From the NCBI GenBank assembly GCA_965223325.1, contig CBDCWI010000002.1, positions 1,952,001 through 2,016,000 on the forward strand: DNA of 64,000 nucleotides. The letters run 5' to 3'. The notes beneath the pieces were generated by a model, which was given only the letters and a program-made list of their open reading frames with translations, searched no databases and was not told where the DNA came from. Position numbers and translations under genes: made by a program. The number at the start of each line of letters is the position of its first letter. The stretch's first letter is position 1. Shown one piece after another: positions 37,747 through 54,333 of this stretch. Source of the DNA: Candidatus Multivoradales bacterium (GTDB lineage: Bacteria; Acidobacteriota; Thermoanaerobaculia; Multivoradales; Multivoraceae).

Positions 37747-37961
37747 GTTCCTACTTCCTCTTTTGGTGGCACGCTCGTTCCACGACCCGAACGCTCACAA
37801 GGCCCGCGGCACCCACAGTTTCCACAGGCGAACAGACGCTCGAGGGCGTCTTCGCTGGACCTTTCGGGAAAGCTGCGCTGCCAGGCACGCTGAATCAGCA
37901 GCCAAGGCAGGATCAGCACTGAAATCGCGGCGCAGGCGAGCAGGAGATCGATCGTGTTCAT
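37743..37961 (-). CDS. Small membrane protein with C-terminal Cys cluster
   Basis: One TM helix then CGNCGCRGPC; stop overlaps the FNR start (ATGA); purine-rich RBS upstream. Confidence 0.6.
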   Translation of the reverse strand: MNTIDLLLACAAISVLILPWLLIQRAWQRSFPERSSEDALERLFACGNCGCRGPCERSGRGTSVPPKEEVGT

Positions 37962-37988
37962 CTTTCTTTGACCTCTTTCGATCGGTCC

Positions 37989-38570
37989 TCAGCTGGTGAG
38001 GCCGGCGAAACCCATAAAGGTGAGCGACAGGATGCCGGCGACAATCAGAGTGATGGCCGCACCCTGCACCAGGTCGGGAGTCTGGGCGAGCTCGAGCTTC
38101 TCGCGCACTCCGGCCATCAACACCAACGCGAGGGTGAAGCCGGCGCCCGCGCCCAGGGCGAAAACGAGTGCCCCGAGGAAGCCGTAGCCACGGTTGGTCT
38201 GAAACAACACCACGCCGAGAATGGCGCAGTTGGTGGTGATCAAGGGCAGGAAGATGCCGAGGGCACGGAACAGCGCCGGACTGGTCTTCTTGATGAACAT
38301 CTCCACCAGCTGCACGGTCGAGGCGATGACCACGATGAAGGCGATCAGGCGCAGGAAGGGTACGCCCAGGTAGAGCAGCAGGCTGTTGATGGCGTAACCG
38401 CACACCGAGCTCACCAGCATCACAAAGGTCACCGCCGCCCCCATGCGGGTGGCGGTCTCGAGCTTGGCCGACACGCCGAGGAAGGGGCAAATGCCCAGGA
38501 AGTAGGCCAGCACGAAGTTGTTGATCAGGCACGCGCCGAGGAAGATCGAGAACAGGGAGGACTCGCTCAT
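37989..38570 (-). CDS. rnfA: Rnf electron transport complex subunit A
   Basis: NNFVLAYFLGICPFLGVS, LGIFLPLITTNCAILG, LSLTFMGF.GL. Confidence 0.93.
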   Translation of the reverse strand: MSESSLFSIFLGACLINNFVLAYFLGICPFLGVSAKLETATRMGAAVTFVMLVSSVCGYAINSLLLYLGVPFLRLIAFIVVIASTVQLVEMFIKKTSPALFRALGIFLPLITTNCAILGVVLFQTNRGYGFLGALVFALGAGAGFTLALVLMAGVREKLELAQTPDLVQGAAITLIVAGILSLTFMGFAGLTS

Positions 38571-39208
38571 GCGGATCCCTCCCCGGCGCGCCGCTCGCGG
38601 CGCTGCTTCATAGCTTGGAACAGCAGCAGCCACGCTGCCAGGGTGAAGAAGCCGCCCCCGGGCAGGATCATCACCACCCAGGGCTCGAACGCGTCGTGAA
38701 AGAGACCAACCCCAAACAGCGAGCCGGCCCCCAAGATCTCACGTACAGCTCCCAGGGTGAAGAGGCCAAAGGTGAAACCGGCGCCCATGCCCAGCCCGTC
38801 GAGCAGCGAGCGAAACACGGTGTTCTTCGAGGCGAAGGCTTCGGCGCGTCCGAGGATCAGGCAGTTCACCACGATCAGAGAGATGAAGGCGCCGAGCGCC
38901 TTGTGCAGGTCGAGGCTGATCGCTTGGATCAGATAGTCGACCACTGTGACGAAGGTGGCGATGATCAGGATGTAGGTGGCAATGCGCACCTGGCGCGGAA
39001 TGAAGTGGCGCAACGACGACACCAGCAAGTTCGATAGCACCAGTACGAAGGTGGTGGCAAGGCCCATGGCCAGTGCGTTGATGGCACTGTTCGACACTGC
39101 CAGTACCGGACACATCCCGAGCAGCTGCACGAACACCGGGTTCTCACGCCAGAGCCCCTTGACCATCTCGTCGGCAGCCGGCGGCGGGGCGTCTTCGAGT
39201 ATGGTCAC
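38567..39208 (-). CDS. rnfE: Rnf electron transport complex subunit E
   Basis: GLWRENPVFVQLLGMCPVLAV, LIVVNCLILGRAEAFA, VREILG.G, ILPGGGF; GTG start overlaps the rnfG stop. Confidence 0.93.
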   Translation of the reverse strand: MTILEDAPPPAADEMVKGLWRENPVFVQLLGMCPVLAVSNSAINALAMGLATTFVLVLSNLLVSSLRHFIPRQVRIATYILIIATFVTVVDYLIQAISLDLHKALGAFISLIVVNCLILGRAEAFASKNTVFRSLLDGLGMGAGFTFGLFTLGAVREILGAGSLFGVGLFHDAFEPWVVMILPGGGFFTLAAWLLLFQAMKQRRERRAGEGSA

Positions 39209-39891
39209 TTCGAGTCCTCCTCGAAGGTGCTCGAGCGGCGCTCCACCAGCGGCACCCAGCGCTCGGTGCTGACGCGCAGCAGCTCCCCCACCGCCACCGA
39301 CGAAATGGTGGCGCCTGAGATGCCGTCGACCTGCCAAGGCTCGGTCTTGGCGCCGTCGGCAACCGCCACGATGGCGTGGCGCGGTGCACTACCGTCCTCG
39401 TTCAGGCGGACGTCGAGACGCTCGAAGTTGGCGAGGAACTCTTCGTCGGTCTCGATGCGATCGCCTAGACCCGGAGTCTCCCGGCTCTCCAGCACTTCGA
39501 AGCCGATGATTGCGTCGTGCTCGAGCGAGTAGCCGTAGAGGACACGGATCATGTCCTGGTAGCCCATGCCCGCCGCTTCGATCGCGACTCCGGCCAGCGA
39601 ACCGTCAACGCGATAGCCGGCGTGGACCCGCTCGCCCGCCTCTCCCTCGGCGCCACTTTCCTCGGCGCCAACGAAGTCGTCGCCCTCGAGGCGTAAGGAC
39701 CGGGTGCTGACCGTCTCGGGCAACACTTCGAGAATGGCGCGCTCGAGCGCCTCGGCACGGTTGCGCTCAATGGTCTCGGCGGTCGATTGGTGCACTACCA
39801 CGATGAGCAAGGCACAGGCCAGGCCCACTCCGACCATCGCCCGGTAGAGCGGCCAGAGCGGGGTCTGCGGTAACGTCTGAGGAGCGGTCAC
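39205..39891 (-). CDS. rnfG: Rnf electron transport complex subunit G
   Basis: N-terminal TM, GYQD.I, ETPGLGDRI, VDGISGATISS (covalent FMN Thr). Occupies the C-terminal part of ORF 39205..40728. Confidence 0.9.
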   Translation of the reverse strand: MTAPQTLPQTPLWPLYRAMVGVGLACALLIVVVHQSTAETIERNRAEALERAILEVLPETVSTRSLRLEGDDFVGAEESGAEGEAGERVHAGYRVDGSLAGVAIEAAGMGYQDMIRVLYGYSLEHDAIIGFEVLESRETPGLGDRIETDEEFLANFERLDVRLNEDGSAPRHAIVAVADGAKTEPWQVDGISGATISSVAVGELLRVSTERWVPLVERRSSTFEEDSK

Positions 39892-40952
39892 GTCACCACC
39901 TCCTTCGCCGCCGGCTTCGCGCGCCGGGCGCCGTACACCCGCGGCCGGATCCACTGGTCGATCAGCGGCGACGCCGCATTGGCGAACAGGATGGCGTACA
40001 TCACACCTTCGGGCATGCCGCCCCAGATCCGGATCACCACCACCAGCACGCCGATCAGGCCGCCGTAGAGCCAGAGTCCAACCTTGGTCATCGGAGTAGC
40101 CACCATGTCGGTGGCCATGAACACGGCACCCAGCATCAGACCGCCTGCCAGGAGCATGAAGGCGGCGTCGGGGTGGACTGGGTCGAGGGCATGCAGGATG
40201 GTGCTTAGCACTGCGACGGTACCCAGAATCGCCACTGGGATCTGCCAACTCATCATCCGGCGTATCGCCAAATAGAGGCCGCCGAGCAGAATCAGCACGG
40301 CACAGGTCTCGCCGGTGGAACCCGAGACCATCCCCAGGGCGAGGTCGCCCGTGGCTGTGAGTTGCTGTTCGAACTTCATGGCGGAGAGCGGCGTCGGCCC
40401 ACTCACTGCGTCGTAAGTCGGTCTGCTGAAGGGCAGCGCCAGGGTGGACGACGGCAAACGCGTGAAGCGCTCGACCAGGAAGGATGGCTGCCAGCTGGTC
40501 ATCGCGGCTGGAAACGCCGCCTGGGCGAAGGCTCGACCTACCAGCGCCGGATTGAAGGCGTTGTAGCCTAGGCCGCCGAACAGCAGCTTGCCCACCACCA
40601 TGCCGAACACAGCGCCCGTAGCGTTCATCCACAGCGGCAAACCGGGTGGAAGGGTCAAGCCGTAGAGCAGGCCGGTGATCACCGCCGACCAATCGCTGAC
40701 GCTCGACGCCTTCCCTGAGAGCCGACAAGCCGCAGCTTCGGTGGCGACGCAGCTGCCAACCGCCACCGCCAAGGTTGCGAGCGCCGCCAAGCCAAAGGCG
40801 TAGACACCGAAGGCCGCCACGGGCAGCAGCGCCCAGACAACGTTGCGCATGATCACGTCGACACTGCGTCCGCTCATGATGTGCGGCGACGACTGGATCT
40901 CAAGCGTCTTGCGGAGACCGGAGGCGGAGCCCGCCTGGGAGGGGATGGTCAC
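39888..40952 (-). CDS. rnfD: Rnf electron transport complex subunit D
   Basis: SSPHI, KLLFGGLG.N.FNPALVGRAF, DAVSGPTPL (FMN Thr), GSTGET, FMATD...P, PEGV.YAIL..N. Confidence 0.93.
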   Translation of the reverse strand: MTIPSQAGSASGLRKTLEIQSSPHIMSGRSVDVIMRNVVWALLPVAAFGVYAFGLAALATLAVAVGSCVATEAAACRLSGKASSVSDWSAVITGLLYGLTLPPGLPLWMNATGAVFGMVVGKLLFGGLGYNAFNPALVGRAFAQAAFPAAMTSWQPSFLVERFTRLPSSTLALPFSRPTYDAVSGPTPLSAMKFEQQLTATGDLALGMVSGSTGETCAVLILLGGLYLAIRRMMSWQIPVAILGTVAVLSTILHALDPVHPDAAFMLLAGGLMLGAVFMATDMVATPMTKVGLWLYGGLIGVLVVVIRIWGGMPEGVMYAILFANAASPLIDQWIRPRVYGARRAKPAAKEVVT

Positions 40953-42316
40953 GCCGCCCCCTTCTGGAGCGCCTCTTGTCTGGCTGCCGCCTTGCGCACG
41001 GCGGCCTTGGCCATCCGGAAGTGCTGCACCAGCGGGATGTGCGAAGGGCAAACGAAGGAACAGCAGCCGCACTCGAAACAGTCCATGAGGTGGAACTCTT
41101 CCGCCATGCGCGCGTACTCCCCCTTCTTGGCCAGCAGGCCGAGCTGCGACGGGTTGAGGAACAGTGGGCAGGCCGCCAGGCAGTCGGCGCAGTGGATGCA
41201 GGGGTACTCCTTGCGGCGCGCCAACGGTGCGGTCTCGCGCTCGGTGAAAGCAACGACTCCCGACGTACCCTTGGTGATCGGAACGTCGAGACTGGAGGCT
41301 GCGCCGCCCATCATCGGACCGCCGAGAAAGACCTGGCTCGTGTTTTCGGCGAGATCGACCTGCTCGAGCAGGAAGCGCAGCGGGGTGCCGATCGGAATGC
41401 GGTAGTTGCCCTTCTTGCCGACCGCCGGGCCCGAGATCGTGATCACCCGCTCCTGAATCCCCCGGCCGTGCGGGAGCAGGCGCCCGATCTCGGCAGTGGT
41501 GGCGACGTTGGTGCACAGAGCGCCAGTGTCGAGCGGCAAGCCGCCAGAAGGCACTTCACGACCGAGCAATGCCGAGATCAGCATCTTCTCGGCACCCTGC
41601 GGATACTTGACGGGCAGGGTCACCACCTCCGCCGGCAAATCGGCGGGCAGGTTCTCCTCGAGCAGCGCGGCGGCATCGACCTTGTTGTCTTCGATGGCGA
41701 CGATCGCGCGCTCGGCCCCACTCACCGTCAGCAGATAGCGAATGCCCTCGTAGATGTCTTCCGACTGCTCGAGCATCACCCGGTGGTCGGTGGTGAGGTA
41801 AGGCTCGCATTCGACCCCGTTGACGATCATGGTGTCGACGCGTTTGTCCTCGGGAACCGCCAGCTTGACGTGGGTCGGAAAGGCGGCACCTCCCAAGCCC
41901 ACGATGCCGGCAGTCTGGATCGCCTCGAGGATCTGCCGGCGCGGCGCGTCGAGCGGACAGGGTGTTCCCTCAGCCACCTCCTGAGTGGAGCTGGGATAGG
42001 GCCGAAGGTAGATCCCGGTCACCATGCGCCCGCTGGCGCTCGGCACCAGACCAATCCGCTCCACCCTCCCCGAGACCGGAGCATGCATCGCCACTGACAC
42101 CCAGCCTTCGGGACGCGCGATCAGCTGGCCGCGCACCACCTCTTCGTCCTCCCTCACCACCGGTACCGCAGGGGCGCCGATGTGCTGGGACAGCGGCACC
42201 ACCAGAGCTGGAGCGAAGGGAAACCGCCGAATTGGCAGCGAAGCGGTGGTGTCCTTCGACTCCGGCGGATGGATGCCGTGCGGAAACGTGTTGCGTTGGC
42301 GCAGAAAAGAGAACAT
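40949..42316 (-). CDS. rnfC: Rnf electron transport complex subunit C
   Basis: GIHPP, LSQHIGAP, HAPVSG, AGIVGLGGAAFPT.VK, NGVECEPYLT.D, KYPQGAEK, GGPMMG, CIHCADCLAACP, CFECGCCSFVCP. Confidence 0.93.
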   Translation of the reverse strand: MFSFLRQRNTFPHGIHPPESKDTTASLPIRRFPFAPALVVPLSQHIGAPAVPVVREDEEVVRGQLIARPEGWVSVAMHAPVSGRVERIGLVPSASGRMVTGIYLRPYPSSTQEVAEGTPCPLDAPRRQILEAIQTAGIVGLGGAAFPTHVKLAVPEDKRVDTMIVNGVECEPYLTTDHRVMLEQSEDIYEGIRYLLTVSGAERAIVAIEDNKVDAAALLEENLPADLPAEVVTLPVKYPQGAEKMLISALLGREVPSGGLPLDTGALCTNVATTAEIGRLLPHGRGIQERVITISGPAVGKKGNYRIPIGTPLRFLLEQVDLAENTSQVFLGGPMMGGAASSLDVPITKGTSGVVAFTERETAPLARRKEYPCIHCADCLAACPLFLNPSQLGLLAKKGEYARMAEEFHLMDCFECGCCSFVCPSHIPLVQHFRMAKAAVRKAAARQEALQKGAA

Positions 42317-42323
42317 TGAAACC

Positions 42324-45300
42324 TCAGTTGTACTTCTGCCCGCGCTCGATCCAGCGCTCGATGTCCTTGGCCGAGCGGTCTTTCGGCACGCCGGGATGGA
42401 TAATGCCGGCGGTGCAGCGCTCGGCAGCCTTGACGAGGTCCTGGTAGGGACCGGCCTCTGCATCGGCGATGTAGGCCTTGCGCTTGTCGTTGTAGACGAA
42501 AATCTTCGAGTTGATGTGGATGCACTCGTCGCAGGTGGTGCACAGGTCGGTGTCGATCCATGGCGCCACGGCAGGTGGGGCGCCATCCTCGCCGGCTGGC
42601 GGTTCGGCGCCTGCGTTCCCCCCGTTGGCGGCAATCTCTCCTCCCGAGCTCGAGGCCACCACCGGCAGCTCCACCGGCTCGGCCGACAAGAGGTCGGCTA
42701 CCTGATCTCCCTCGCCGACGGCAATTCGCACCAGGTTGCGCGTGATGGTCGAGATGACCTCGCCGCGCACCTTCGCTTCGACCTCAGGTAGCGAGATCTC
42801 TTCCCGATCCAACCCAGCCAGGGCGCGCAACATGGTCCAGAACTGCCGGCGGTCTTCGCACGACCGCACCATGGTGTGGTCGACCAGCAAACGGCTGAGT
42901 CGCTCTTCGCGATCCACCGTCCAGATGAACGGGTAGCGATCCTCGCGCTCCCTCTCATCGAGCTCGAGGAACTCGTCGAGAGGCACCATTTGATCGTTCC
43001 ATGTGTCGGGCGGCGCCTTGCGGAAGTGCTTTCGGAAGCGAACCTCGGTAATCGCGAAGTCGGCGAAGGTCATAGGCAGCTCCATCTCCTTCTCGATGCC
43101 GGACTCGCGGTAGGCCAGTCTGTAGGTCGGCCAGTCCTGGTCGATCGCTGGGTTGCCTTCGAGGTCGAAGCACTCGCGTGGCGTGATGCCGCGGTCGGGG
43201 TCGTAGCGGAAGAGGGGATAGGCACGCGACTCGACCGCCAGCTTTGCCTGGTGGGTGCTCATGTCGTCGCCGATGCCGTGCTCCGGCTGGCAGGCGGTGT
43301 ACAAGTTGAACAGCGCCGGTCGGCGCGCCTTGAGGCCGTGGATGAAGCCCTCGATCATGTGCGACGGGTTGGCCGCGGTGGCCTGCATGACGTAGGTCGT
43401 GCGGTGCGCCATGCCGATCAGGCCAATCTCCTTTCGCTGCTCCTCCTTGCCCCGGCTGACGCGCCCGAACTGCGCCATGTCAGAGACCTGGCCGAGGAAG
43501 CCCGAGGTGCAGGCCTGGCCGCCGGTGTTCGAGTAGACCTGCGTGTCCACCACCACGATCTTGATTGGCTTGCCCGACATCATGGCGCGCGACAAGTTCT
43601 GGAACCCGATGTCGTACATGGCACCGTCGCCGCCAACCGCCACCACCGGCGGGCACAATTCCCACTCCTCGTCGGTGAAGTCCTGCCAAGTGAGGTAGGC
43701 CATCTGCTCGTCGTGCTCGGCCGGCTTGTAGCGCCCCGCAATCTCGAGCTCGGCCAGGCGGATGGCCTTGAAGCCTTCGGCCATCTTGGCCATGTGACCT
43801 TCGAAAATGCCGAGTGCCATCGACGCCGAGTCCTGGAACAGGTGGTTGGTCCAGGGGAAGGGGTAGGGGTTGAAGGGATAGGTGCTGCCCCACACCGAAG
43901 TGCAACCGGTGGCATTGACCATGCCCATCGACGTGCGGCCCTTGCCGCTGGCACCCCGCTCGTAGCGCCAGAGCAGGTTCTTGAGCTTCGCCACCAGGCC
44001 GGTCGTGCGCCGCAGCCACTCCTGGTCGATCGGCTGCGCGCCTTCACGACCTGCGGCGTGTTCGGCGAGGTCGGCCAGCGTCAGGTCCTCGTCCTGGTGC
44101 GCGGCGGTAAAGCCGGCGATGTCGCTCGCGTCGGAGACGTCGAGCCCGCCCACGAGCTGGAGACGCACGTGCTGCTCGAGGCGCTCGATCAGGTCGTGCA
44201 GGTAGGCGGTGTGCTTCTTCACCCGCGGCTGCATCAGCGCCTCGACGGTGGCAGTGAAGAGGTGGATCACCGTCTTCTCGCCGCAGCCAAGGCAGGCACC
44301 GTCGCCACTGGTCAGGGAGAGGTAGTTGTTCTTGTCGAGCAGGATGGTCTCGAGCGCACCAATCGCCTCGTCGATGTCGTCGACGCGGATGTACTTCTGA
44401 GGTGTCGTCGGCAGATCGAGCCAGAAGTCCCAGTGCTGGCGCAAGGTCTCGATGCTGTCGTCGGTCTGGGTGACCCGGTGCAGTGCGTCGTCGTCGCACA
44501 CCTCGACGCACTCCATGCAGCCCTTGCAGGTGTAAGGGTTCACCGTTATCGAGAGCAGGCCGCCGTCGCCAGCCTGGCGCTGCTCGGGCACCGTGAAGTA
44601 GGGCCGAGAGAGAGCGAACTGGAAGTCTCCTAGTTCTTCCCGGAACCAGTCGAGTTCCCGTTCGAGAACTGTACGCTCGACCCCATTCCCGGAAGACCCA
44701 TTCCCGGTCATCTCATCGAGAGCCGCGGTAATCGCACCGTCCATCATCGCCGACACCGAGTCGGTCTCTTCAGCCTGCTGGAACAGACCGCGAAGATGGC
44801 GTTCGACGATGCGTGACGCCTTCGGCAGGTGTTCGACCTCGTGCCCCTGGTTGCGCACCCGCTTCACCACAGTGTCGATCACTTCGCCGACTTCGTTGAC
44901 GAGGCCGGGAATCGCGGTGTCGGGACAAACGGTGTAGCAGTCGCCACAGGCGGTGCAGTTCTCCGGAATCCACTGCGGATGCTCGAAGCGGATGCCGGTC
45001 ATGTCGCGGAACAGCGCCGATACCGCCGGGATCACTCCGAGGCCAATGAACGGGTCGGTCAGGTTGTCACTCCCCTGGCCGCGGACGTAGAAGCTGCCGG
45101 TCTGTTCCCAGAAGCGATGCACATCGGTGATTGGCGCCTGCCCTTGCGGCACCGACTCGAGCATCACCGGTAGCTGCGGGCCGCTGCCGTTTCCGTTCAC
45201 CGGTGCCGCTACCTCCTCGATCGAGTCGTAGGGCACCGGCTTCAGCTCTTCGAACCCACGCTTGACTACGCGCACGTTGTCTGCCACTACCCGCGCGCCC

Positions 45301-47369
45301 TTACTGCCAAACTTCTTCTGCAGCTGCGCCTCGATCGCCTGCAACAGGTGGCCCTCGTCGAGGCCCTCGTGCTCCATGACGTCGGAGGCCCGGAAGAAGG
45401 CACCTTGGAAGGCGTTGCCCTGCATGCGTAGCTGCAGGTCGGGGTCGGTTGCCTCGTCGCGTGCGATCTGAAAGGCATCGAGGTAATAGAGGCGGATCTC
45501 CTTGTCTTCGACGACTTTGCGGAAGCCGGTCGGAATCGAGTGCCAGACCGCCTCCGGCGAGCCGAGATCGCTCTGGATCACGAACACACCACCTCGTCTG
45601 AGGCCGGCGATGGCATTGCTATGGTGGAAGACGTTGGGGTCGGGAGAGAGCACCACGTCGACGTGGAAGTACTCGCAGTTGACCCGGATCGGCTCGGGCG
45701 CCGCCGAAAGGTAGTAGGTGGTCGGCTGCCCCTTCTTCTCGGAGCCGTACTTGGGATTGGCCTTGATGTGGTAGCCGAGCAGGTCGAAGAGCGTCATCGC
45801 CAGGTTCTTGCCGGTAGTGATCGCACCCCAGCCTCCGACAGAGTGGATGCGTACCGTGGTGCTGCCTTCGGGCATCAGGTTGGGGTTCTCACTGCCCTTG
45901 ATCGCCAGCTCACGCACGTGCCGATAGCTCTCTTCGATGGTCTGCTGGTAGATCTCCTGCTTGGGGGTCTTGGCCTGCTCGTGCAGGAAGTCGATCGACA
46001 GGTAGAAGTGTTTGCGGTGCGCGCCGTCGGGCAGCATGTTCTCGATCGCAGCGAGCAGACCCTCGGGCTGTAGGTCGCGACTGCCAAGACCGAAAGAGCC
46101 CGAGTAGAGCGCCGGCGCATCGCCAGGCCCCTGGTAGCTGGCGAGCTCAGGGTAGGGCAGCTCCTTCGCCTCCTGGCTGCGGCGTCCGAGTCGGCGCTTG
46201 CCGACGGGACCGGCGAAGCCGTTCTCGAGTGCCTTCGAGACAGTAGAGCGGACCTCCCGCATCAGCGGTAGATCGGCTGCCAGCGGCTGGTCGAGGCGCT
46301 CGAGAACCGCCACTCCTTTGCGCCCCTCGAGCGCGCGACTGAGCAGGTCGCTCGGGAACGGGCGGAACATCGCGAGCTCGACCACCCCCACCCGGAGCTT
46401 GCGCTCGCTCCTCAGGTAGTCGACCACCGCCTCGGCCGAAGGCAAGACGCTGCCCTGCCCGAGGATCAAGTACTCGGCATCGTCCACCCGGTAGGTCATG
46501 ACGCGCTCGTAACGACGACCAGTCAGGCGGTAGAACTCGTCCATCGCCTGGTCAGTGAGCTCGGCGATGTGGTCGAAGAAGAAGGGGCGCTGCGCCGCGA
46601 CGCTCTGCATGTAGGCGTCCTGGTTCTGCACGACGCCCGACATCACCGGGTTGTCGACGTCCCACAGCTCAGGGATCCGGCGCCGCTGGTCACCGTAGAG
46701 GATGCGCTGAGCCGGAGTCGGGGTGGCGATGATGTCGTCTGGTCGACCGAGGTACTCCTCGATCAGCTCGCGCTCCGGAACCATCATCGATTCGATCAGG
46801 TGGGTAGTCAGGAAACCGTCCTGGGCAACGATGCCCGGGTTGAGAGCGAGCTCGGCGACACGATGGGCGATCAGGTTGAAGTCGGCGGCCTGCTGGGCGT
46901 TCTTGGCAAACAGCTGGAAGAAGCCCGTGTCGTCGACGGCGTGGTAGTCGTCGTGGCCGGCGTGCACGTTGAGGGTGGCTTTGGTCATCGCGCGCGCGCC
47001 AACGTTGAGGACGTAGGTGAGGCGCTTGCCCACCGCCGCGTAAAGCGACTCGTGCATGTAGGCAATGCCCTGGCCCGAGGAGAAGTTGGCCGCCCGCAGA
47101 CCGGTCATCGACAGCCCCGCGGTCACCGCCGCCGCGGCGTGCTCGCCTTCCGGCTCGATGAAGATGAGCGGCCGTCCGGAAATGTTGAGGTGCCCGCTCG
47201 CTGCCGCCTCCGACCAGTACTCCCCCATCTGGGTGGAAGGAGTGATCGGATACGCCCCCGCAGCGTCGCTCGACTCGCGCTCGCAAAGGATCACAGCGGT
47301 GTTGCCATCCACCGCGGAGCGTTCGCCCGGGTACTTGAAGTTCGAGTTGTTGTTCTTCTTCTTCGACAT
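42324..47369 (-). CDS. Single-chain pyruvate(2-oxoacid):ferredoxin oxidoreductase (NifJ/PFOR-type, 1681 aa) with extra C-terminal ferredoxin domain
   Basis: AYPITPST, EGEHAA, YGSEKKG, CTACGDCYTVCP, CKGCMECVEVC, GACLGCGE, ATGCTSVWG, GGDGAMYDIG, YSNTGGQ; C-terminal CTTCDEC...C. Start at ATG 47369. Confidence 0.9.
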   Translation of the reverse strand: MSKKKNNNSNFKYPGERSAVDGNTAVILCERESSDAAGAYPITPSTQMGEYWSEAAASGHLNISGRPLIFIEPEGEHAAAAVTAGLSMTGLRAANFSSGQGIAYMHESLYAAVGKRLTYVLNVGARAMTKATLNVHAGHDDYHAVDDTGFFQLFAKNAQQAADFNLIAHRVAELALNPGIVAQDGFLTTHLIESMMVPERELIEEYLGRPDDIIATPTPAQRILYGDQRRRIPELWDVDNPVMSGVVQNQDAYMQSVAAQRPFFFDHIAELTDQAMDEFYRLTGRRYERVMTYRVDDAEYLILGQGSVLPSAEAVVDYLRSERKLRVGVVELAMFRPFPSDLLSRALEGRKGVAVLERLDQPLAADLPLMREVRSTVSKALENGFAGPVGKRRLGRRSQEAKELPYPELASYQGPGDAPALYSGSFGLGSRDLQPEGLLAAIENMLPDGAHRKHFYLSIDFLHEQAKTPKQEIYQQTIEESYRHVRELAIKGSENPNLMPEGSTTVRIHSVGGWGAITTGKNLAMTLFDLLGYHIKANPKYGSEKKGQPTTYYLSAAPEPIRVNCEYFHVDVVLSPDPNVFHHSNAIAGLRRGGVFVIQSDLGSPEAVWHSIPTGFRKVVEDKEIRLYYLDAFQIARDEATDPDLQLRMQGNAFQGAFFRASDVMEHEGLDEGHLLQAIEAQLQKKFGSKGARVVADNVRVVKRGFEELKPVPYDSIEEVAAPVNGNGSGPQLPVMLESVPQGQAPITDVHRFWEQTGSFYVRGQGSDNLTDPFIGLGVIPAVSALFRDMTGIRFEHPQWIPENCTACGDCYTVCPDTAIPGLVNEVGEVIDTVVKRVRNQGHEVEHLPKASRIVERHLRGLFQQAEETDSVSAMMDGAITAALDEMTGNGSSGNGVERTVLERELDWFREELGDFQFALSRPYFTVPEQRQAGDGGLLSITVNPYTCKGCMECVEVCDDDALHRVTQTDDSIETLRQHWDFWLDLPTTPQKYIRVDDIDEAIGALETILLDKNNYLSLTSGDGACLGCGEKTVIHLFTATVEALMQPRVKKHTAYLHDLIERLEQHVRLQLVGGLDVSDASDIAGFTAAHQDEDLTLADLAEHAAGREGAQPIDQEWLRRTTGLVAKLKNLLWRYERGASGKGRTSMGMVNATGCTSVWGSTYPFNPYPFPWTNHLFQDSASMALGIFEGHMAKMAEGFKAIRLAELEIAGRYKPAEHDEQMAYLTWQDFTDEEWELCPPVVAVGGDGAMYDIGFQNLSRAMMSGKPIKIVVVDTQVYSNTGGQACTSGFLGQVSDMAQFGRVSRGKEEQRKEIGLIGMAHRTTYVMQATAANPSHMIEGFIHGLKARRPALFNLYTACQPEHGIGDDMSTHQAKLAVESRAYPLFRYDPDRGITPRECFDLEGNPAIDQDWPTYRLAYRESGIEKEMELPMTFADFAITEVRFRKHFRKAPPDTWNDQMVPLDEFLELDEREREDRYPFIWTVDREERLSRLLVDHTMVRSCEDRRQFWTMLRALAGLDREEISLPEVEAKVRGEVISTITRNLVRIAVGEGDQVADLLSAEPVELPVVASSSGGEIAANGGNAGAEPPAGEDGAPPAVAPWIDTDLCTTCDECIHINSKIFVYNDKRKAYIADAEAGPYQDLVKAAERCTAGIIHPGVPKDRSAKDIERWIERGQKYN

Positions 47370-47413: not shown

Positions 47414-48277
47414 TCAGGTCGGCGCGACGGGCGCAGTACCCTGACGGACGACCTTGTGAGCCGCCGCACCCTTGATGACGGTTCCGTCCGGCTCCAGCCA
47501 GACGATGGCGCCAGTCGGACAGCGCGCGATTGGATCGCGAGTCGCGTGATCGCGGCGGTAGTCGACGACCGGTAGGTTGTTGCTCATTGTGATCAGCCCG
47601 GGAGCGTCCATGGCGCAGCGGGCGCAGGCCGTGCAGCCCACCTCGCAGTCCTCGAGGAGATCGTCGCCCGCCTCGAGCGAGCGGCACGCCACCCAGAGCC
47701 GGTGGCTCACCGCGTGCAGCGAGAATAGGTTCTTGGGGCAGGCCTCCACACAGTCGCCGCACGCTGTGCAGAGATCCTCGTTGACCACAGGGAGCCGATG
47801 GCGATTCATCTCGATGGCGCCGAAGTCGCATGACACCTCGCAGTCACCGATGCCGAGGCAGCCCCAGAAGCACCCCTTCCCACCGCCGGCAACCAACGTC
47901 GCCGCCGAGCAGCTCTCGACTCCACGGTAGACGGCGTGCATGCGGGCAACGTTGGCGCCGCCGGCGCAAGCCAGGCGAGCAACGCACTTCTCTTCGTTGC
48001 CCACGTCGACCCCGAGGTAGCGCGCGATGCGCTGGCGAGCCGACTCCGAGCTCACGGTGCACTTGCCGGGCAGCACGTCGCCGCGCACCAACGCCTCAGC
48101 GAACGGCGCACAACCGGGATAACCGCAGCCTCCGCAGTTGGTCTGGGGCAGCAGGTCTTCCACCTCCCGAATGCGCGGGTCCTCCGCCACCGCCAGCCGA
48201 CGATCGGCCAGCACCAGGAGCGAAGCCAAGAGGAGCGTCAGCCCGCCCAGGGTCGCAACGGCGGTGGTCAGGAGCAT
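47414..48277 (-). CDS. rnfB: Rnf electron transport complex subunit B
   Basis: N-terminal TM, EDPRI...LPQTNCGGCGYPGC, CFWGCLGIGDCEVSC, CTACGDCVEACP, CTACARCAMD, CPTGAI. Confidence 0.92.
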   Translation of the reverse strand: MLLTTAVATLGGLTLLLASLLVLADRRLAVAEDPRIREVEDLLPQTNCGGCGYPGCAPFAEALVRGDVLPGKCTVSSESARQRIARYLGVDVGNEEKCVARLACAGGANVARMHAVYRGVESCSAATLVAGGGKGCFWGCLGIGDCEVSCDFGAIEMNRHRLPVVNEDLCTACGDCVEACPKNLFSLHAVSHRLWVACRSLEAGDDLLEDCEVGCTACARCAMDAPGLITMSNNLPVVDYRRDHATRDPIARCPTGAIVWLEPDGTVIKGAAAHKVVRQGTAPVAPT

Positions 48278-48417
48278 GAAGAACGTCCTCCAGAAACGAG
48301 ATTGCCGCGGAACCACGAAAGCAGAGTGGCCCGTCGAGTTGGGGCGGGCCACCGAAGCAACGACTCGAGAATAGCCGTTCTCGGAGAAACTGTAGGTGCG
48401 TGGTCACAGCACCAAAC

Positions 48418-48433
48418 CTAGGGAAAACCCTAG
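48418..48433. promoter_or_regulatory. Perfect palindrome, candidate operator for the divergent rnf/PFOR and hemerythrin/OFOR arms
   Basis: CTAGGG-AAAA-CCCTAG in the 238-bp divergent intergenic region. Confidence 0.55.
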
Positions 48434-48515
48434 ATAGCCAGCCATTTCAAATTCTTTCAGCATTGGAGGATCGGCTCGGGCAGGAGCCGTAACCTGTCGA
48501 TTCGCAGGAGGAACC

Positions 48516-48932
48516 ATGACGGACTCGAAGAAGCTCCATCGCGAGATCCAAGAAGAGCACGACGCGATCCAGACATTGGTTCGACAGTTGTCCAAGGAAG
48601 TCGAGACGCCGGCCATCGAGAGTGAGTTGCGGGAGTTGGCCGGCCTGCTCGACACACACTTCGGCCGCGAGGAAGCCCCGAAGGGTCTTCACGACTCGAT
48701 CGGCGACCGTGCTCTCAACCTCTTGCCGCACGTCGAGAAGCTATCTACCCAGCATCGGGAGATCGCCGGGAACCTGCAGAGCCTGCTCGACCAGTGTGCG
48801 CGGCACACGCGCATGGCTGAAGAGATCCGACAGGGCGCGCGTGGTCTGGTCGAGCAGTTGAAGAAGCACGAGGCCGATGAGAACGATCTGCTCGGTCACG
48901 CCTTCTACGACACCCTCGGAGTCGGCGACTGA
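48516..48932 (+). CDS. Hemerythrin-like (HHE) domain protein
   Basis: EHDAI...HFGREE...QHREI...HEADE iron-ligand pattern; AGGAGG RBS. Confidence 0.82.
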   Translation: MTDSKKLHREIQEEHDAIQTLVRQLSKEVETPAIESELRELAGLLDTHFGREEAPKGLHDSIGDRALNLLPHVEKLSTQHREIAGNLQSLLDQCARHTRMAEEIRQGARGLVEQLKKHEADENDLLGHAFYDTLGVGD

Positions 48933-49003
48933 GAGCCTTGCTCTCCTCTTTCGCTTCTGAAGCTCCCCTTCTCTGAGATCTCGTTGCCTGGTGCCGACCC
49001 GCT

Positions 49004-50902
49004 ATGACCGAGGCACCTGCACCGAAAGCGCCCAATCTGTCCGATCGGCAGCCGGTCGGTGAGCGAGTTGCCATCGATGAGCACATCGTCGAGATCGTCA
49101 GCGACTCCGGGGAGGGCGCACAGAAGGCAGGCCAGACCATGGGCACGGTCAGCGCCCGCATGGGCAACGGCGTCTGGACAGTCGAGATCATCCCAGCCGA
49201 GATCAAGCCGCCGGCACGCTCACGCGCGGGGGCCAGCGGCATCCGAGTCCGAATCGGCAGCCGCGAGATCAACAACGTCGGCGACCGCGCCGACCTGGTG
49301 GTCGCCTTCAACGAGCAGGTGCTCTACGGCCGCGTCGAAGCGGGAGCCTACGGCCCGAAGACGATCGTCCTGCTTGAGAGCTCCTGGGCTGAGCATCCGG
49401 ACGAGGCCATCCGGGAGCAGTACCGCCAGGCGCTCAAGGACTTCAGCCAGGTCGGGCTCAACATCATCGAACTGCCGATCGAAGCGACGTGCCGTACGGT
49501 CTTTAAGAAGCCTCCGGTCGGCAGGCTCCTGGGCAAGAACATGTTCGTGGTCGGCATGCTCGCCCACATCTACGACCGTGACCGTGACGAGATCAAGAAC
49601 GAGATCGAGCTTTTGTTCAAGAAGCGCGGCCAGGAGGTCGTCGACCTCAACCACGAGCTGGTCGACGCCGGTTGGCAGTTTGCGCGCGACAGCGTCAACC
49701 TGCGCTTCGAGATCGGACCGCTAGCCGACAGTGGTGAGCGTGTGGTCATGAACGGCAACCAGGCGGTTGGCCTCGGGGTGCTCGCCGCCGGAATTGAAGT
49801 CGTGGCGATGTACCCGATCACCCCAGCGACCTCGGTGTCGCACTACCTCGCTGCCGCCCTGCCCCGTACCGGAGGCATCGTGCATCAGGCGGAAGACGAG
49901 ATCGCAGCGATCGGCTTCGCGATCGGCGCCAGCTATGCCGGCAAGACAGCCTGTACCATCACCTCAGGGCCCGGTCTGGCCCTCAAGACCGAGTTCCTTG
50001 GTCTGGCGGTGATGGCCGAGATTCCGTTGGTCGTCGTGCTGGTGCAACGCGGCGGACCGTCCACGGGTCTGCCAACCAAAGTCGAGCAGGGAGACCTACT
50101 CGCGGTCCTCTACGGCACGCCAGGAGATGCTCCCAAGGTGGTGCTGGCGCCGTCGACCATCGAAGAGTGCTTCCACTTCGTGGTTCTGGCTCGCAAGCTG
50201 GCCGAAGACCTCCGAGCGCCGATCTTCCTGCTCACCGACGCAAACCTCGCCACCGGGGTGCAACCGTTTCCACGCCCTCAGTTCGATCCGGACTGGCTGG
50301 CGCCACCGCTCGATCAGAGTCCCTGGCCGGACGACAAACCGGCCTACGACTGGGATTCGGCCACCGGCCTGTCGCGTCGGCCGATCCCCGGCCAGCGTGG
50401 CGGCGAGTACGTCGTCACGGGCCTGGCGCACACCAACCAGGCCAAGGTGGTCTACGACTCGCACTCCAACCAGCAAGCCTGCGAGCATCGTAGCCGCAAG
50501 CTCGCTACCCTGGCTTCGACCCTCAAGCCGCCCGAGGTCTACGGCGACGACGAGGGCGACCTTCTCCTCGTGGGCTGGGGCTCGACGCGCGGTTCGATCG
50601 AAGAGGCGGTCGGCCGCCTGCGAGAGCGCGGACACCGCGTCTCGGCCATCCACCTGCGCTTCCTGTCGCCGCTCGAACCCGGGCTCGACGAGATCTTCCA
50701 GCGCTTCGGTCGCGTCATGACGATCGAGCTCAACTACTCCGACCCCACCGACCTCGAGCCGAGGACTTCTCGGCGCATGAGTCAGCTCGCCACGCTGCTG
50801 CGCGCGACATCCCTCCACGATATCGAGTGCTGGTCCCGGGTTTCCGGCCAACCCCTGCCTCCGGGCGACCTAGTGAGAGAAGTGGAACGATGTTTGACGT
50901 GA
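49004..50902 (+). CDS. 2-oxoacid:ferredoxin oxidoreductase alpha subunit (KorA-like)
   Basis: SDSGEG, IPAEI, YPITPAT, QAEDEIAA, TSGPGLALK.E, QRGGPSTGLPTKVEQGDL, GWGST. Confidence 0.9.
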   Translation: MTEAPAPKAPNLSDRQPVGERVAIDEHIVEIVSDSGEGAQKAGQTMGTVSARMGNGVWTVEIIPAEIKPPARSRAGASGIRVRIGSREINNVGDRADLVVAFNEQVLYGRVEAGAYGPKTIVLLESSWAEHPDEAIREQYRQALKDFSQVGLNIIELPIEATCRTVFKKPPVGRLLGKNMFVVGMLAHIYDRDRDEIKNEIELLFKKRGQEVVDLNHELVDAGWQFARDSVNLRFEIGPLADSGERVVMNGNQAVGLGVLAAGIEVVAMYPITPATSVSHYLAAALPRTGGIVHQAEDEIAAIGFAIGASYAGKTACTITSGPGLALKTEFLGLAVMAEIPLVVVLVQRGGPSTGLPTKVEQGDLLAVLYGTPGDAPKVVLAPSTIEECFHFVVLARKLAEDLRAPIFLLTDANLATGVQPFPRPQFDPDWLAPPLDQSPWPDDKPAYDWDSATGLSRRPIPGQRGGEYVVTGLAHTNQAKVVYDSHSNQQACEHRSRKLATLASTLKPPEVYGDDEGDLLLVGWGSTRGSIEEAVGRLRERGHRVSAIHLRFLSPLEPGLDEIFQRFGRVMTIELNYSDPTDLEPRTSRRMSQLATLLRATSLHDIECWSRVSGQPLPPGDLVREVERCLT

Positions 50903-51840
50903 AAGACGACTGGGCCCTCGAGCTTCCTGAGCGCTACTTCACTTTAGAGAACTACGAAGGCGGCATCGCACGCTGGTGTCCCGGCTGCGGCGACCACGGC
51001 ATCCTGGCAGCGGTCAAGAGAATCTGCGCCGAAGAGCAGATCCCATCTGAGCGTGTGGTGGCCATTTCCGGCATCGGGTGCGCCAGTCGCTTTCCGCACT
51101 ACATGCACGCCTACGGGTTTCACGGCCTGCACGGCCGAGCGTTGCCTGTGGCCTGCGGCGTCAAAGCCAGGCGCCCGGACCTGAAAGTATGGGTCGCCAC
51201 TGGAGACGGCGACTGCTGCTCGATCGGCGCCGGCCACTGGCTGCACGCCATCCGCTTCAACATGGACATGACCGTCATGCTGTTCGACAACAACATCTAC
51301 GGCTTGACCAAGAAGCAAACGTCACCCACCACCCCGGTGGGAACCGTCACCAACACCAGCCCGGAGGGTGCCTGGCTGCCGCCACTCAACGTGCTCGAGA
51401 ACGTGCTCGGTTTCACCAATGTCTCCTTCGTAGCGCGTACCGTCGACTGGAACGCCAACCACCTCCACGACACCCTGCGGCGTGCCTACGACCACGAGGG
51501 ATTGAGCTTCGTCCACATCCTGCAACGCTGCCCGACCTACACCGAGCACATCTTCGATGACTGGCGCAACAACCCGGATCGCGTCCTGCTGCTCGAGCAC
51601 GAGGACGGCGTGCCGATCGCCGAGAGCGTGGGCAAGATCTTCAGCCAGCGCCAAGCACACGATCCGCAAGATCTACAGGCGGCACGCCAACTGGCGGTGG
51701 CAGACGATCTGGCCCTCGGCCTCTTCTACTGCAATCCAGAGGCACCTCGCTACGAGAGCTTCACCAACCATGGGCTCGAGATGAGCCGCGAGCAGCGGTG
51801 GTCTGCGATCGCCGAAGAGCTCGATCGCTTCACGATCTGA
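50890..51840 (+). CDS. 2-oxoacid:ferredoxin oxidoreductase beta subunit (KorB-like)
   Basis: WCPGCGD, SGIGC, HGLHGRA, GDGD, DNNIYGLTKKQ.SPT, CPTY. Confidence 0.9.
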   Translation: MFDVKDDWALELPERYFTLENYEGGIARWCPGCGDHGILAAVKRICAEEQIPSERVVAISGIGCASRFPHYMHAYGFHGLHGRALPVACGVKARRPDLKVWVATGDGDCCSIGAGHWLHAIRFNMDMTVMLFDNNIYGLTKKQTSPTTPVGTVTNTSPEGAWLPPLNVLENVLGFTNVSFVARTVDWNANHLHDTLRRAYDHEGLSFVHILQRCPTYTEHIFDDWRNNPDRVLLLEHEDGVPIAESVGKIFSQRQAHDPQDLQAARQLAVADDLALGLFYCNPEAPRYESFTNHGLEMSREQRWSAIAEELDRFTI

Positions 51841-51857
51841 GAGGACCTGGGCAACCG

Positions 51858-53525
51858 ATGTCCGATCGCGAATCCGAGTCGCTCGAGCAACACCTGCGGC
51901 AGCTTCAGGGCTTTCATTTCGGCGTCGAGGGTTCGGGCACTGCGGCGGCCGCCGAGGCGCTTGCTCTGGTTCCCGCCTGGCTGCCGGAGGTAGAACGTCG
52001 GCTCGCCGGTGGATCGAGCCTACGCTGCCTGATCCAGCGCGCCGAGGTTGCCTACTCGAGTGCATGGAAGGATTGGCAGCAGCGGGCCTCCCCCATCGCG
52101 ACGGCACTCGAGTCGTTGGTGGGATCAATCGGCGAGGGCGGTGCCTCCTCGCCTGCTGCACTCGGGGCCATGGGCTCGCGCTTCGTCAACCCGGATGCCC
52201 TCGCCACCAGACTGAGCTCCCAGCGCCGGGAGAGTGTCTCGGCCGAACGCCAGAGCCGACTCGAGAAGAGCCTCGCCGTGCTCCGGCGCGGACTCGAAGG
52301 CCGCATGACCCGTCGCCCGCTGATCCTGTGCGATCCCGACCTCTCAGCCTTGAGCGCCGACCTTCCGGAAGGCATCGACATCACGGTCGAAGAGCGGCCC
52401 TGCCGCTCCATCGTCGAGCCATTCGAGGAACGCGCCAATGAAGTGGCCGAGCTCATCGCGGCGCTACGGGTCGCCCGACTCGAGCTCGAGCAGTCTTACG
52501 ATCCCGCGGTGCACGATTCAGACCTCGTCCACTTCGACTGGCGCAGCCTGCACGACGCCGAGCGGCCCCTCCTGCCCAGCCTGCTCTGTGTCGTGTCGTA
52601 CCCGAACGCCATCGGCGACGAGCTGAGCGCACTGTTTCAGCTCTTGACATCGGCGCTGCCGATCCAGATCCTGGTTCCGGTCGCACCGCTGGCCAGTGCC
52701 TTGGACGGTGAAATCGACCTCGCCCACCTGGCTTTGAGCCACCGACGCAGCTTCGTCCACCAGGGATCCTTGGCCGCAGCCGACTTGCTCGAACGCGGAT
52801 TCGATCGCGCCCTTGCGACACCAGGCGCCGCCCTTCACCTGATTGCCGGTGACGAGCTTGGCGAGGATGGGCAGCCGGAGAGCCCCGGCGCCGCGGTCGA
52901 CGCTCGCTGCCATCCCCTCTTCGTGTTCGATCCCGGGCCGTCGCGGGCCAGCGCCGTGCTCGAGCTCGACGGCAACCAGCTTCCCGATCAAGACTGGGTC
53001 ACCAGCGACGAACTGTCCTTCACCATAGCTCACTTGGCATTGCTGTCGCCCCGCGGCCTCAGGGAGCTGGCGCCAGTCGCCGAAGACCTACTCCCCGAGC
53101 CCGCAACGGCCGGAAACGGGCCTGCGTCCGTTCCATCCAGAATGCAGGCGAAGCCATCCGCTCGGTCCTCCGAAACGCTTCTGCCCCTGGGGGAATGGCT
53201 CTCACTCACCCCCGAGCAGACCCGGCGCAAGCTCCCCTTCATCCATGCCGCCAACCAGGAGGGAGACATCGTCCACTTGGTCGCGAGCCGTCGACTCGCC
53301 CTGGCCTGCATCGAGCGCCTCGACCACTGGCGGACACTCCGGCGCCTCGCGGATCGCACCCCAGCCACCGCACCTCGGGCGCTGCCGAGCGAACAGCTAC
53401 CGATGCTGCCAGACGCCCAGTCGGACGAGCCGGCGCTCCACCCTGATGTCGAACGGTTGCGGATGGCCGAGCAGGTGGTTGGCCGTCTGATGTCGCGGCT
53501 TCTCAACGACGGGCCTTCAGCATGA
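51858..53525 (+). CDS. Hypothetical protein, degenerate paralog of the PFOR TPP-binding/C-terminal region
   Basis: Colinear similarity to the C-terminal third of 42324..47369 (see findings), with no GDG or Fe-S Cys motifs. Confidence 0.7.
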   Translation: MSDRESESLEQHLRQLQGFHFGVEGSGTAAAAEALALVPAWLPEVERRLAGGSSLRCLIQRAEVAYSSAWKDWQQRASPIATALESLVGSIGEGGASSPAALGAMGSRFVNPDALATRLSSQRRESVSAERQSRLEKSLAVLRRGLEGRMTRRPLILCDPDLSALSADLPEGIDITVEERPCRSIVEPFEERANEVAELIAALRVARLELEQSYDPAVHDSDLVHFDWRSLHDAERPLLPSLLCVVSYPNAIGDELSALFQLLTSALPIQILVPVAPLASALDGEIDLAHLALSHRRSFVHQGSLAAADLLERGFDRALATPGAALHLIAGDELGEDGQPESPGAAVDARCHPLFVFDPGPSRASAVLELDGNQLPDQDWVTSDELSFTIAHLALLSPRGLRELAPVAEDLLPEPATAGNGPASVPSRMQAKPSARSSETLLPLGEWLSLTPEQTRRKLPFIHAANQEGDIVHLVASRRLALACIERLDHWRTLRRLADRTPATAPRALPSEQLPMLPDAQSDEPALHPDVERLRMAEQVVGRLMSRLLNDGPSA

Positions 53526-53814
53526 GCAAGTCGTGTCCAGACCTGGGCCCGTTGTGTTCGACTCGCGTCCCAGCTTGAGTTCGTCGAACCAGACCTCGAG
53601 CGGCTCGTCGAAGTCGCTTCCACTTTCTCAACGGGAGGTGTCGTTCCTGGCTTCCGTGGCAAGTCGAGTTGAGAATCATTGTGTACAGCCTGGCAACGGT
53701 CGCCACCGCAATTGCCGAGACCGTTTCGCGCTGCCCGAACTACGCTAACGACCCGGTACACGGCGCTACGTGGGGGCTGAGCCTGTCTGAGGCTCGGCCG
53801 CTCGAAGCGTCGAC

Positions 53815-54333
53815 TCAGTCCTGCATCTGTCGCGTCCACGTCGCCTGGTCGAAGTAGTCGCGCCAGGCGGCGATCTTGCCATCTCTGAGATCGAACGCTC
53901 CCATCACCGGCAGGGCAACGTCCTTGTCGCCGAAGACGAAGCGGTCCATGCGCTCGTTGAGGACTGTGGACCCGACCTGGGAACTGTTGAGGATCTCCCA
54001 GTCGACCTTCGCCGCAGCGTTGACGTAGGACTCGATCAGGTTACGAACAGCCTCGGTGCCCTGCACCGGACCGGTGGGCATGTTGTGGTAGATGGCGTCT
54101 TCGGTGAAGAAGCTCATGATGCGGTCGATGTCTTTGGTGTTGAAGGCGGCGATGAAGTCTTCGACGATCTCGATTCCGTTGCTCACGCTGTCCTCGGCTT
54201 TCTTGGCTGGTTCCGGCTCCGTCGCGGACTCGCGTGCAACCAGGGGGCTGCAGAGCAACACGACGGCCAGGAGTGCGCCCGCGCCCCTACGGATCAGGTC
54301 TGGTGCGGTCGCAGTGCGGGGTGAATGGTTCAT
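53815..54333 (-). CDS. Limonene-1,2-epoxide hydrolase family (NTF2-like) protein with signal peptide
   Basis: YHNMP, NERMD, LPVMG.F, WRDYFD (Tyr/Asn and Arg-Asp/Asp catalytic set); N-terminal RR plus hydrophobic segment; ATGA overlap with tetR. Confidence 0.82.
   Translation of the reverse strand: MNHSPRTATAPDLIRRGAGALLAVVLLCSPLVARESATEPEPAKKAEDSVSNGIEIVEDFIAAFNTKDIDRIMSFFTEDAIYHNMPTGPVQGTEAVRNLIESYVNAAAKVDWEILNSSQVGSTVLNERMDRFVFGDKDVALPVMGAFDLRDGKIAAWRDYFDQATWTRQMQD

Follow-up and report, generated by a model that had tools for sequence, protein, structure and literature searches.

What does the gene directly behind korAB encode, in a region where the Rnf genes accompany a gene for pyruvate:ferredoxin oxidoreductase (PFOR)? 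The question is raised by a 64,000-nt stretch of Candidatus Multivoradales bacterium (contig CBDCWI010000002.1, positions 1,952,001 to 2,016,000), the whole of which is called here the window. [quoted passage not shown] Positions 51858-53525 of the plus strand of the window specify a 555-aa protein, P0001 (row win_X in the tree described below), and the unnamed family that contains it is called X. An initial annotation had presented P0001 as an apparently dead paralog of the thiamine diphosphate-binding half of the large PFOR of the window, retained as a scaffold or regulator. The analysis reported here shows that the gene of P0001 is genuine and conserved and that its product is a pseudoenzyme, one of the short variants in an unnamed family that descends from PFOR and is tied to KorAB and Rnf.

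The coordinates and the intact frame first reported for this gene are correct, with 555 open codons beginning at an ATG located 17 nt past the korB stop and preceded by the sequence GAGGA. A GTG start at 51798, which would yield 575 aa, was discarded, since such a frame would reach back into the end of korB and since a Shine-Dalgarno sequence precedes the ATG at 51858. The GC content by codon position (74/50/78) is like that of the neighbouring genes. Neither Pfam nor NCBIfam returned a family for P0001 at E <= 0.01, no PDB sequence matched it at E <= 1, and within the source genome it matched itself and the window PFOR only. BLASTP against the 1835-aa minus-strand open reading frame (ORF) of this PFOR gave 87.4 bits (E 1e-21, 24% identity over 354 columns), aligning residues 189-506 of P0001 with residues 1343-1682 of the ORF, that is, 1189-1528 of the 1681-aa PFOR. 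The match is far above what chance would give. All the colinear blocks on which the paralogy had been proposed fall inside this alignment, and within it the GGDGAMYDIG and YSNTGGQ motifs of the PFOR face unrelated residues of P0001. The R-A-x-P-L-F-x-Y-D-P and W-R-T-L segments are among the sequence blocks that are colinear with PFOR. At the level of the family, a profile of 24 canonical X members was aligned with hhalign to the 48 complete PFORs that neighbour X genes (the cluster PFORs, including those of the window and of the loci labelled G034 and L039; G and L numbers designate genomes of relatives and fetched loci), giving a probability of 100 and an E value of 8.5e-89 for a collinear match that begins where domain V starts and extends as far as the C-terminus.

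Structure prediction for P0001 with a 4-row alignment was poor (predicted local distance difference test, pLDDT, 53), and the AF2 model obtained with 132 family rows reached a pLDDT of 85.5 and a pTM of 0.82. The best Foldseek matches of this model were all PFOR chains, followed by beta subunits of 2-oxoacid:ferredoxin oxidoreductases (OFORs), with an E value of 2.8e-6 for 6cio_A. VIA-align superposed residues 46-499 of the model on residues 809-1170 of 6cin_A with a Z score of 23.7 (rmsd 5.0 over 274 residues); Z scores of 20.9 and 19.6 were obtained with 1b0p_A and with the beta subunit of oxalate oxidoreductase (5exd_F), and other thiamine diphosphate enzymes scored about 10-11. The extent of the match indicates that residues 46-499 correspond to a complete PFOR-type domain VI.

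The ligands of this domain are missing. When the window PFOR was added to the 132-row alignment of the X family, the four columns of the proximal-cluster cysteines held a cysteine in 0, 1, 2 and 0 of the 132 members, and the column of the GDG aspartate held an aspartate in four of them, with some GDG tripeptide near the site in 6/132. P0001 itself has none of the four cysteines and carries S-Y-P in place of the G-D-G of PFOR. Moreover, in the profile comparison with the 48 cluster PFORs, X has gaps at the two CxxCxxCxxxCP motifs of domain V, and TPP_enzyme_C (PF02775) was matched neither by P0001 nor by the 8 other X members scanned in Pfam, which returned Fer4_13 alone or nothing. Judged from these alignments, the loss of ligands is old and family-wide, not peculiar to P0001. 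Likewise, on the evidence of sequence and modelled fold, P0001 is a PFOR-derived protein (domains V-VI-VII) that has kept the fold and is predicted to be unable to bind thiamine diphosphate/Mg or the proximal [4Fe-4S] cluster. The paralogy to the thiamine diphosphate-binding half of PFOR and the absence of the cofactor motifs, both read originally from the sequence of the window, are therefore borne out by the pairwise and profile alignments, by the fold match and by the motif loss throughout the family.

How large this family is became apparent from an exhaustive profile search, a word-index search for homologues having returned just three relatives. In that search 2079 library proteins passed E <= 1e-3 and 953 passed E <= 1e-30, counts that also contain the long PFORs; the top 150 library hits reached 339 bits or more, and PFORs came out at about 210-235 bits when scored with a profile of this type. 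A library sample of 152 proteins (P0001-P0152) was made of the listed best hits (P0001 and P0004 included) together with P0002 and P0003 from the word-index search. In addition, one genome per species was scanned with the 24-row alignment, which yielded 368 X loci in species-representative genomes, the best 80 of which were examined. These 80 belong to Gammaproteobacteria (Thiodiazotropha, Sedimenticola, Thiomargarita, Woeseiaceae, Chromatiaceae and Achromatium), Planctomycetota, Eisenbacteria, Myxococcota and Thermoanaerobaculia (Acidobacteriota). A free-standing X was found in 6/40 relatives of the source genome. Members are annotated in databases as 'ferredoxin' or 'hypothetical protein', and no Pfam or NCBIfam model covers them.

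A typical X protein has about 830 aa and ends with a [4Fe-4S] ferredoxin (Fer4_13) carried on a Pro/Ala-rich tether. The question raised at the outset, whether homologues carry a C-terminal ferredoxin that P0001 lacks, is thus answered: a C-terminal CxxCxxC...C ferredoxin is present in 105 of the 152 library proteins (median length 826 aa; the 47 without it include some fragments) and in 79 of the 80 fetched loci, and P0001 ends after a conserved amphipathic helix, with tether and ferredoxin absent. At the other end, the family has an N-terminal module made of R-x-F-H, P-A-L-L, R-x-D-Y-P-L and a helical D-N-L-x-R-L-E insert. P0001 has kept F19-H20 and P39-A40-x-L42 and has lost the stretch of about 110-130 columns that holds R-x-D-Y-P-L and D-N-L-x-R-L-E, which in canonical members is the helical insert remaining from domain V. 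Its identity to the 131 other aligned members is 25-38%. It should be noted that three longer proteins of 1310-1368 aa (P0133, P0143 and P0149) have a C-terminal half that scores as X (340-357 bits) with a ferredoxin at its end, and that the N-terminal half of P0143 and P0149 gave weak POR_N and/or PFOR_II matches; these proteins may be full-length ancestors or fusions of X.

In a quick FastTree phylogeny of 71 rows, for which the support values are local only, the X clade and the clade of PFOR C-terminal halves are separate, each with support 100, and inside the PFOR clade the PFORs with and without catalytic motifs (live, support 97; dead, support 100) are sisters. P0001 belongs to a seven-row clade of short ferredoxin-less forms (support 100), the nearest row being a G013 fragment with 59% identity. 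A second and larger ferredoxin-less clade of about 760 aa includes G034 and L039. The idea that P0001 is a local paralog born in this genome therefore does not hold: X is a well supported clade of its own, sister to all the C-terminal halves of the cluster PFORs and spread over several phyla, and a recent duplication of the neighbouring PFOR is ruled out by the tree. A derivation of X from a dead PFOR-like protein was also considered and is not supported, because X is sister to live and dead halves together and has many conserved residues in common with the live ones.

The conserved gene order is korA-korB-X-rnfB-PFOR-rnfCDGE. Among the 71 testable loci of the best 80, korB lies directly upstream of X in 65 (with a 17-nt gap in the window) and rnfB directly downstream of X in 62, usually followed by a PFOR-sized gene and rnfC-D-G-E. 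The window differs from this usual order in that rnfB is on the opposite strand and not directly downstream of X. Exceptions to the order are four Thiotrichaceae loci, L035, L038, L039, L041, L054, L072 and L087. Where the cluster is split (the window, G001, L041, L054, L072 and L087), X stays beside korAB. In the four relatives with enough flank (G034, G001, G029 and G025), the order hemerythrin-korA-korB-X is found each time, and a hemerythrin gene also precedes korA in L022-L024, L034 and L039. The hemerythrin opens the korAB-X unit in the window and in loci of Myxococcota, Eisenbacteria and Acidobacteriota, and no match to it was found in most gammaproteobacterial loci. The four Thiotrichaceae loci (L044, L046, L070 and L076, Thiomargarita among them) carry a ferredoxin-bearing X, with no match to korAB, rnfB or PFOR up to 9 kb on either side, the downstream flank of L070 covering about 1.7 kb.

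A further link between X and the PFOR of the cluster is given by the ferredoxin. Among the 48 loci with a complete neighbouring PFOR, 45 combine an X that has the ferredoxin with a PFOR of about 1500-1540 aa that lacks it, and three (the window, G034 and the Eisenbacteria locus L039) combine an X without ferredoxin with a PFOR of 1668-1707 aa that carries it; in no locus (0/48) is the ferredoxin on both proteins or on neither. The same three PFORs are the only ones to have kept C-x-G-C-G-E, N-x-T-G-C, GGDGAM and YSNTGGQAC, all four motifs being lost in the other 45, and each of the two cluster motifs of domain V is present in 43 of the 48. Consistently, two 'dead' PFORs scanned in Pfam had neither POR (domain III) nor TPP_enzyme_C, whereas the live PFOR of L039 has both. 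The window PFOR is catalytically intact by its motifs (CLGCGE, NATGC, GGDGAMYDIG and YSNTGGQAC), has the full Pfam domain set of a functional enzyme and ends with a tethered Fer4_13. It scores 411 bits on the NifJ model TIGR02176 against a cut-off of 911, and it is of a long divergent type with inserts. Beyond these 48 loci, G001, G004 and G013 have a short ferredoxin-less X and, between rnfB and rnfC, a live PFOR with a ferredoxin tail; the six genomes with the ferredoxin on PFOR do not represent six independent events, since four of them belong to one family. The tails of X and PFOR are homologous, so that the ferredoxin domain may have moved by recombination between paralogs. Such an either/or placement is a clue of the Rosetta-stone type that X and PFOR act together, and the contribution of the window is to join a live ferredoxin-bearing PFOR to a stripped 555-aa X, the simplest version of the system, with complementary placement of the ferredoxin. 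The pattern can be followed in the PFOR and X of the window and at L015, L039, L021, L102 and L103. Examples of dead cluster PFORs among L022-L101 are L062:12325-16923 and L023:12497-17035. At L104 (G035:C23:36000-48000), an rnfB-like gene is followed by a live ferredoxin-tailed PFOR, and the roughly 5 kb downstream gave no korA, korB or rnfC/D/G/E match.

What role can be proposed for a protein of this kind? Two-subunit OFORs are described in the available text of PMC13768988 as lacking domain V and having a single cluster. From this, from the gene order and from the either/or placement of the ferredoxin, we infer that P0001 is probably, although with limited confidence, a non-catalytic docking subunit that would link KorAB to the electron path of PFOR and Rnf. 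X would dock KorAB, an enzyme without a ferredoxin domain of its own, and would hold it beside the tethered ferredoxin and so beside RnfB, the entry of the Rnf pump. Low-potential electrons would thereby move among KorAB, PFOR and Rnf with no free carrier involved, in a direction and for a purpose that we can only propose. In the lineage of the window, the ferredoxin tail would be on the live PFOR and X would survive as a bare adaptor. The mechanism advanced at first, in which the pseudoenzyme would dock the KorAB-like enzyme or form a heterodimer with PFOR so as to link both to Rnf, fits the conserved gene order and the ferredoxin placement. A complex prediction for KorB with X scored 0.00 in two runs performed without controls, which is evidence neither way.

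Several observations weigh against a docking role for P0001. In all lineages X changes more quickly than the genes around it, and in the lineage of the window somewhat faster still: canonical X pairs are 43-53% identical where KorA is 72-76% identical, whereas between the window and G001 the identities are 72% for KorA, 76% for KorB and 37% for X. P0001 has lost two modules of the family, the helical insert and the tether with its ferredoxin; it differs from the consensus at many columns that 80% or more of the members conserve (W365S, R367V, D392H and W463H among them), and its G499D is unique among the 132 rows. In the four Thiotrichaceae loci X is solitary, the surrounding 9 kb or so holding no korAB and no rnfB. 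Finally, G035, a genome 97% complete, has a live ferredoxin-tailed PFOR and no X found genome-wide, so that X may be dispensable once PFOR carries the ferredoxin.

The lost modules, the unusual substitutions and the case of G035 would also suit a relic on its way out, in which X would have become jobless when the live PFOR took over the ferredoxin tail, and the 555-aa form, without function, would be decaying slowly in a frame left open because the DNA is GC-rich and has few stops; the low identity to the X of the same genus, set against 72-76% for KorA and KorB, and the occurrence here of long spurious ORFs, such as a 269-aa ORF antisense to the gene, can be read in the same way. We nevertheless hold such a relic to be unlikely. 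Compared with the G013 homologue over 295 codons, P0001 shows a dN of 0.28 and a dS of 1.26-1.36, hence an omega of about 0.22, and a Thiodiazotropha pair gives 0.07-0.10 for X and 0.03-0.04 for KorB, all of these figures being rough because dS is near saturation. A ratio of about 0.22 indicates, as far as codon comparison can tell, purifying selection, and neutral decay would not fit it. In addition, intact short forms occur in at least four genomes of three genera and in metagenome proteins, forming one well supported clade, which agrees with the initial annotation that the gene is kept and not decaying. The tight spacing behind korB with its Shine-Dalgarno sequence and the confident fold prediction also argue against a relic, and the larger clade of about 760 aa shows a ferredoxin-less X to be retained stably in other settings.

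Two other functions may be weighed against docking. In one, to which we give about as little weight as to the relic, X would act as a cap or stabiliser that guards the one exposed [4Fe-4S] cluster of KorB from oxygen, or as an assembly chaperone, together with the hemerythrin and in the manner of domain VII in the PFOR of D. africanus. Hemerythrins reportedly protect Fe-S enzymes in Campylobacter. The co-directional hemerythrin-korA-korB-X unit of the window, G034, G001, G029 and G025 and the persistence of X with korAB in split clusters are in keeping with protection, as is the portrayal of PFOR domain VII as an oxygen-protecting element in the available text of PMC13768988. However, hemerythrin was not matched upstream of korA in most gammaproteobacterial X loci, the tethered ferredoxin seen across the family suggests electron transfer and not shielding, and no conserved cysteine pair of the domain VII type turned up, no search having been aimed at one. 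The other function, which appears less probable again, is that of a regulator or sensor in which the dead pyrophosphate-binding (PP) domain would still bind a metabolite (for example a 2-oxoacid, CoA or a nucleotide) and tune KorAB or PFOR allosterically. Pseudoenzymes that retain a ligand pocket are a known theme, and several polar residues are conserved in X alone (the N-terminal R-x-F-H motif, P181-C182, H327, H352, D379 and R478). Yet part of this set is lost in P0001, which has Q17 where the family has R, no ligand-binding motif was detected by Pfam or NCBIfam, and most of the strongly conserved positions of X are common to live and dead PFORs and so look structural.

The docking subunit thus remains the reading we favour, and it can be extended. 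One KorAB-PFOR-Rnf supercomplex might have as its fixed subunits X, the tethered ferredoxin and the PFOR embedded among the rnf genes, whether live or dead; in it the PFOR-derived pseudoenzyme bodies would serve as scaffold and one swinging [4Fe-4S] ferredoxin domain, on X or on PFOR, would shuttle electrons between the oxoacid oxidoreductases and RnfB. This extension is speculative and we consider it doubtful, though not so improbable as the alternatives discussed above. If it were true, reverse Rnf driven by the ion gradient would feed reductive carboxylation, or the reverse would take place, without soluble ferredoxin, and the window would represent a variant that has a catalytic PFOR still alive beside an X pared down to an adaptor and nothing more.

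The features of the region are collected in the table.

Table. Features of the korAB-X and rnf-PFOR region of the window (coordinates in nt, position 1 being the first letter of the stretch)
Feature	Position	Strand	Evidence and remarks
rnfA-like ORF	37795..38532	-	position only; no Pfam match at E 1e-3
rnfE	38567..39337	-	Rnf-Nqr 1.3e-65
rnfG (ORF as listed)	39205..40728	-	FMN_bind 6.2e-13
rnfD (ORF as listed)	39888..41516	-	NQR2_RnfD_RnfE 1.9e-107
rnfC (listed ORF)	40949..42634	-	RnfC_N, Complex1_51K, Fer4
Long single-chain PFOR, 1681 aa, between rnfB and rnfC	42324..47369	-	POR_N, POR, PFOR_II, Fer4, TPP_enzyme_C, Fer4_13
rnfB, 312 aa, divergent from the hemerythrin-korAB-X unit	47414..48352	-	PF04060 FeS 1e-13 and Fer4 domains
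Hemerythrin-domain protein, first gene of the hemerythrin-korA-korB-X unit	48516..48932	+	PF01814 9.1e-8
korA, OFOR alpha subunit (domains III-I-II)	49004..50902	+	POR_N 8.3e-50, POR 1.7e-17; TIGR03710 512 bits, above cut-off
korB, OFOR beta subunit (PP domain), intact	50827..51840	+	TPP_enzyme_C 1.5e-27, PFO_beta_C; TIGR02177 243 bits
X (P0001), 555 aa	51858..53525	+	cofactor-less relic of PFOR domains V'-VI-VII; short form without helical V' insert and without terminal ferredoxin

The start of korB is probably the conserved methionine at residue 22 of the listed ORF (about 50890), and in a 52-row alignment C51, C54, C85, C235 and G126-D127-G128 of KorB are invariant. The listed rnfC ORF overlaps the 3' end of the PFOR gene, so that the true start of rnfC lies further downstream. 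The rnfA-like ORF is 54% identical to the gene in the same position in G001, where an RnfE query also matches (36%), and its listed frame or start may be off. A gene for an NAD_binding_1 protein is also on the minus strand with the rnf genes. Scanning of 48300-53900 returned no promoter-like site and three terminator-like sites where 2.8 were expected, not above chance; one result of the terminator scan, likewise not above chance, is a weak hairpin at 53535-53548, just past the P0001 stop. The 269-aa antisense ORF (53030-53839, minus strand) overlaps the 3' end of the P0001 gene and has no Pfam or NCBIfam match; its match in G013 lies opposite the X homologue there, and it is most likely a GC-rich shadow frame. 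Convergent with P0001 is a gene for a 292-aa protein (53815-54693, minus strand) whose C-terminal domain is SnoaL/LEH-like and which also gave weak matches to sigma-70 (SigJ-type). Elsewhere on the minus strand, at 22170-27715 and 10422-17447, a cytochrome protein of the planctomycete type (PSCyt1, PSCyt2, PSD1; 1346 aa) adjoins a DUF1501 protein, and a 2341-aa protein with DUF11, HYR and Big_9 domains lies near it.

With regard to known systems, full-text literature searches, to which supplementary gene tables are closed, returned no description of X or of cofactor-less PFORs linked to Rnf. What is taken in genome papers for 'Rnf plus PFOR' contains a conserved PFOR-derived protein for which there is no curated model. 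The nearest structural relative of P0001 is domain VI of the single-chain PFORs of M. thermoacetica (6CIN/6CIO) and D. africanus (1B0P), whose fold is shared by residues 46-499 (Z 23.7 and 20.9). Unlike that domain, P0001 has neither the GDG/Mg site nor the proximal-cluster cysteines, and unlike 6CIN and 1B0P, X carries helical inserts of the type found in the long Rnf-linked PFORs and is free-standing, without domains I-IV. In being a free-standing PP domain encoded beside an alpha subunit gene, X resembles the OFOR beta subunits, such as KorB of the M. marinus OGOR (6N2N), the S. tokodaii OFOR (5B46) and oxalate oxidoreductase (5EXD), with Z scores of 12.6-19.6; however, these subunits keep the four cysteines and the GDG, of which X keeps none, and X is encoded in addition to an intact KorB. 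As an extra non-catalytic or electron-carrying protein encoded with an OFOR, whose role and place are unsettled, X can be likened to the PorE polyferredoxin of Methanococcus and to the epsilon subunit of five-subunit PFORs as these are presented in the available text of PMC13768988. This likeness is one of description only. X derives from the catalytic PP domain itself, and the copy in the window is without any Fe-S motif.

The comparison that bears most directly on the cluster is with sulfur-oxidising symbionts. In the genome of the Solemya velum symbiont, PFOR genes lie between rnfB2 and rnfC2, and pyruvate is taken as the electron donor in the sections available (PMC4287430). For Endoriftia, co-expression is reported to place a 'PFOR-like' gene together with korAB, again in the part of the paper available (PMC11636981). 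In those portions both papers treat the gene as one for a functional PFOR and leave X unmentioned, whereas here 45 of the 48 cluster PFORs have lost the ligands of domain VI. As the PFOR of the cluster would be unable to bind its cofactors in most lineages, reconstructions that count it as pyruvate oxidation or synthesis may be wrong. The symbiont genes, as far as these accounts describe them, belong to the same cluster and to the same long-PFOR lineage, and X is the sister of their C-terminal halves.

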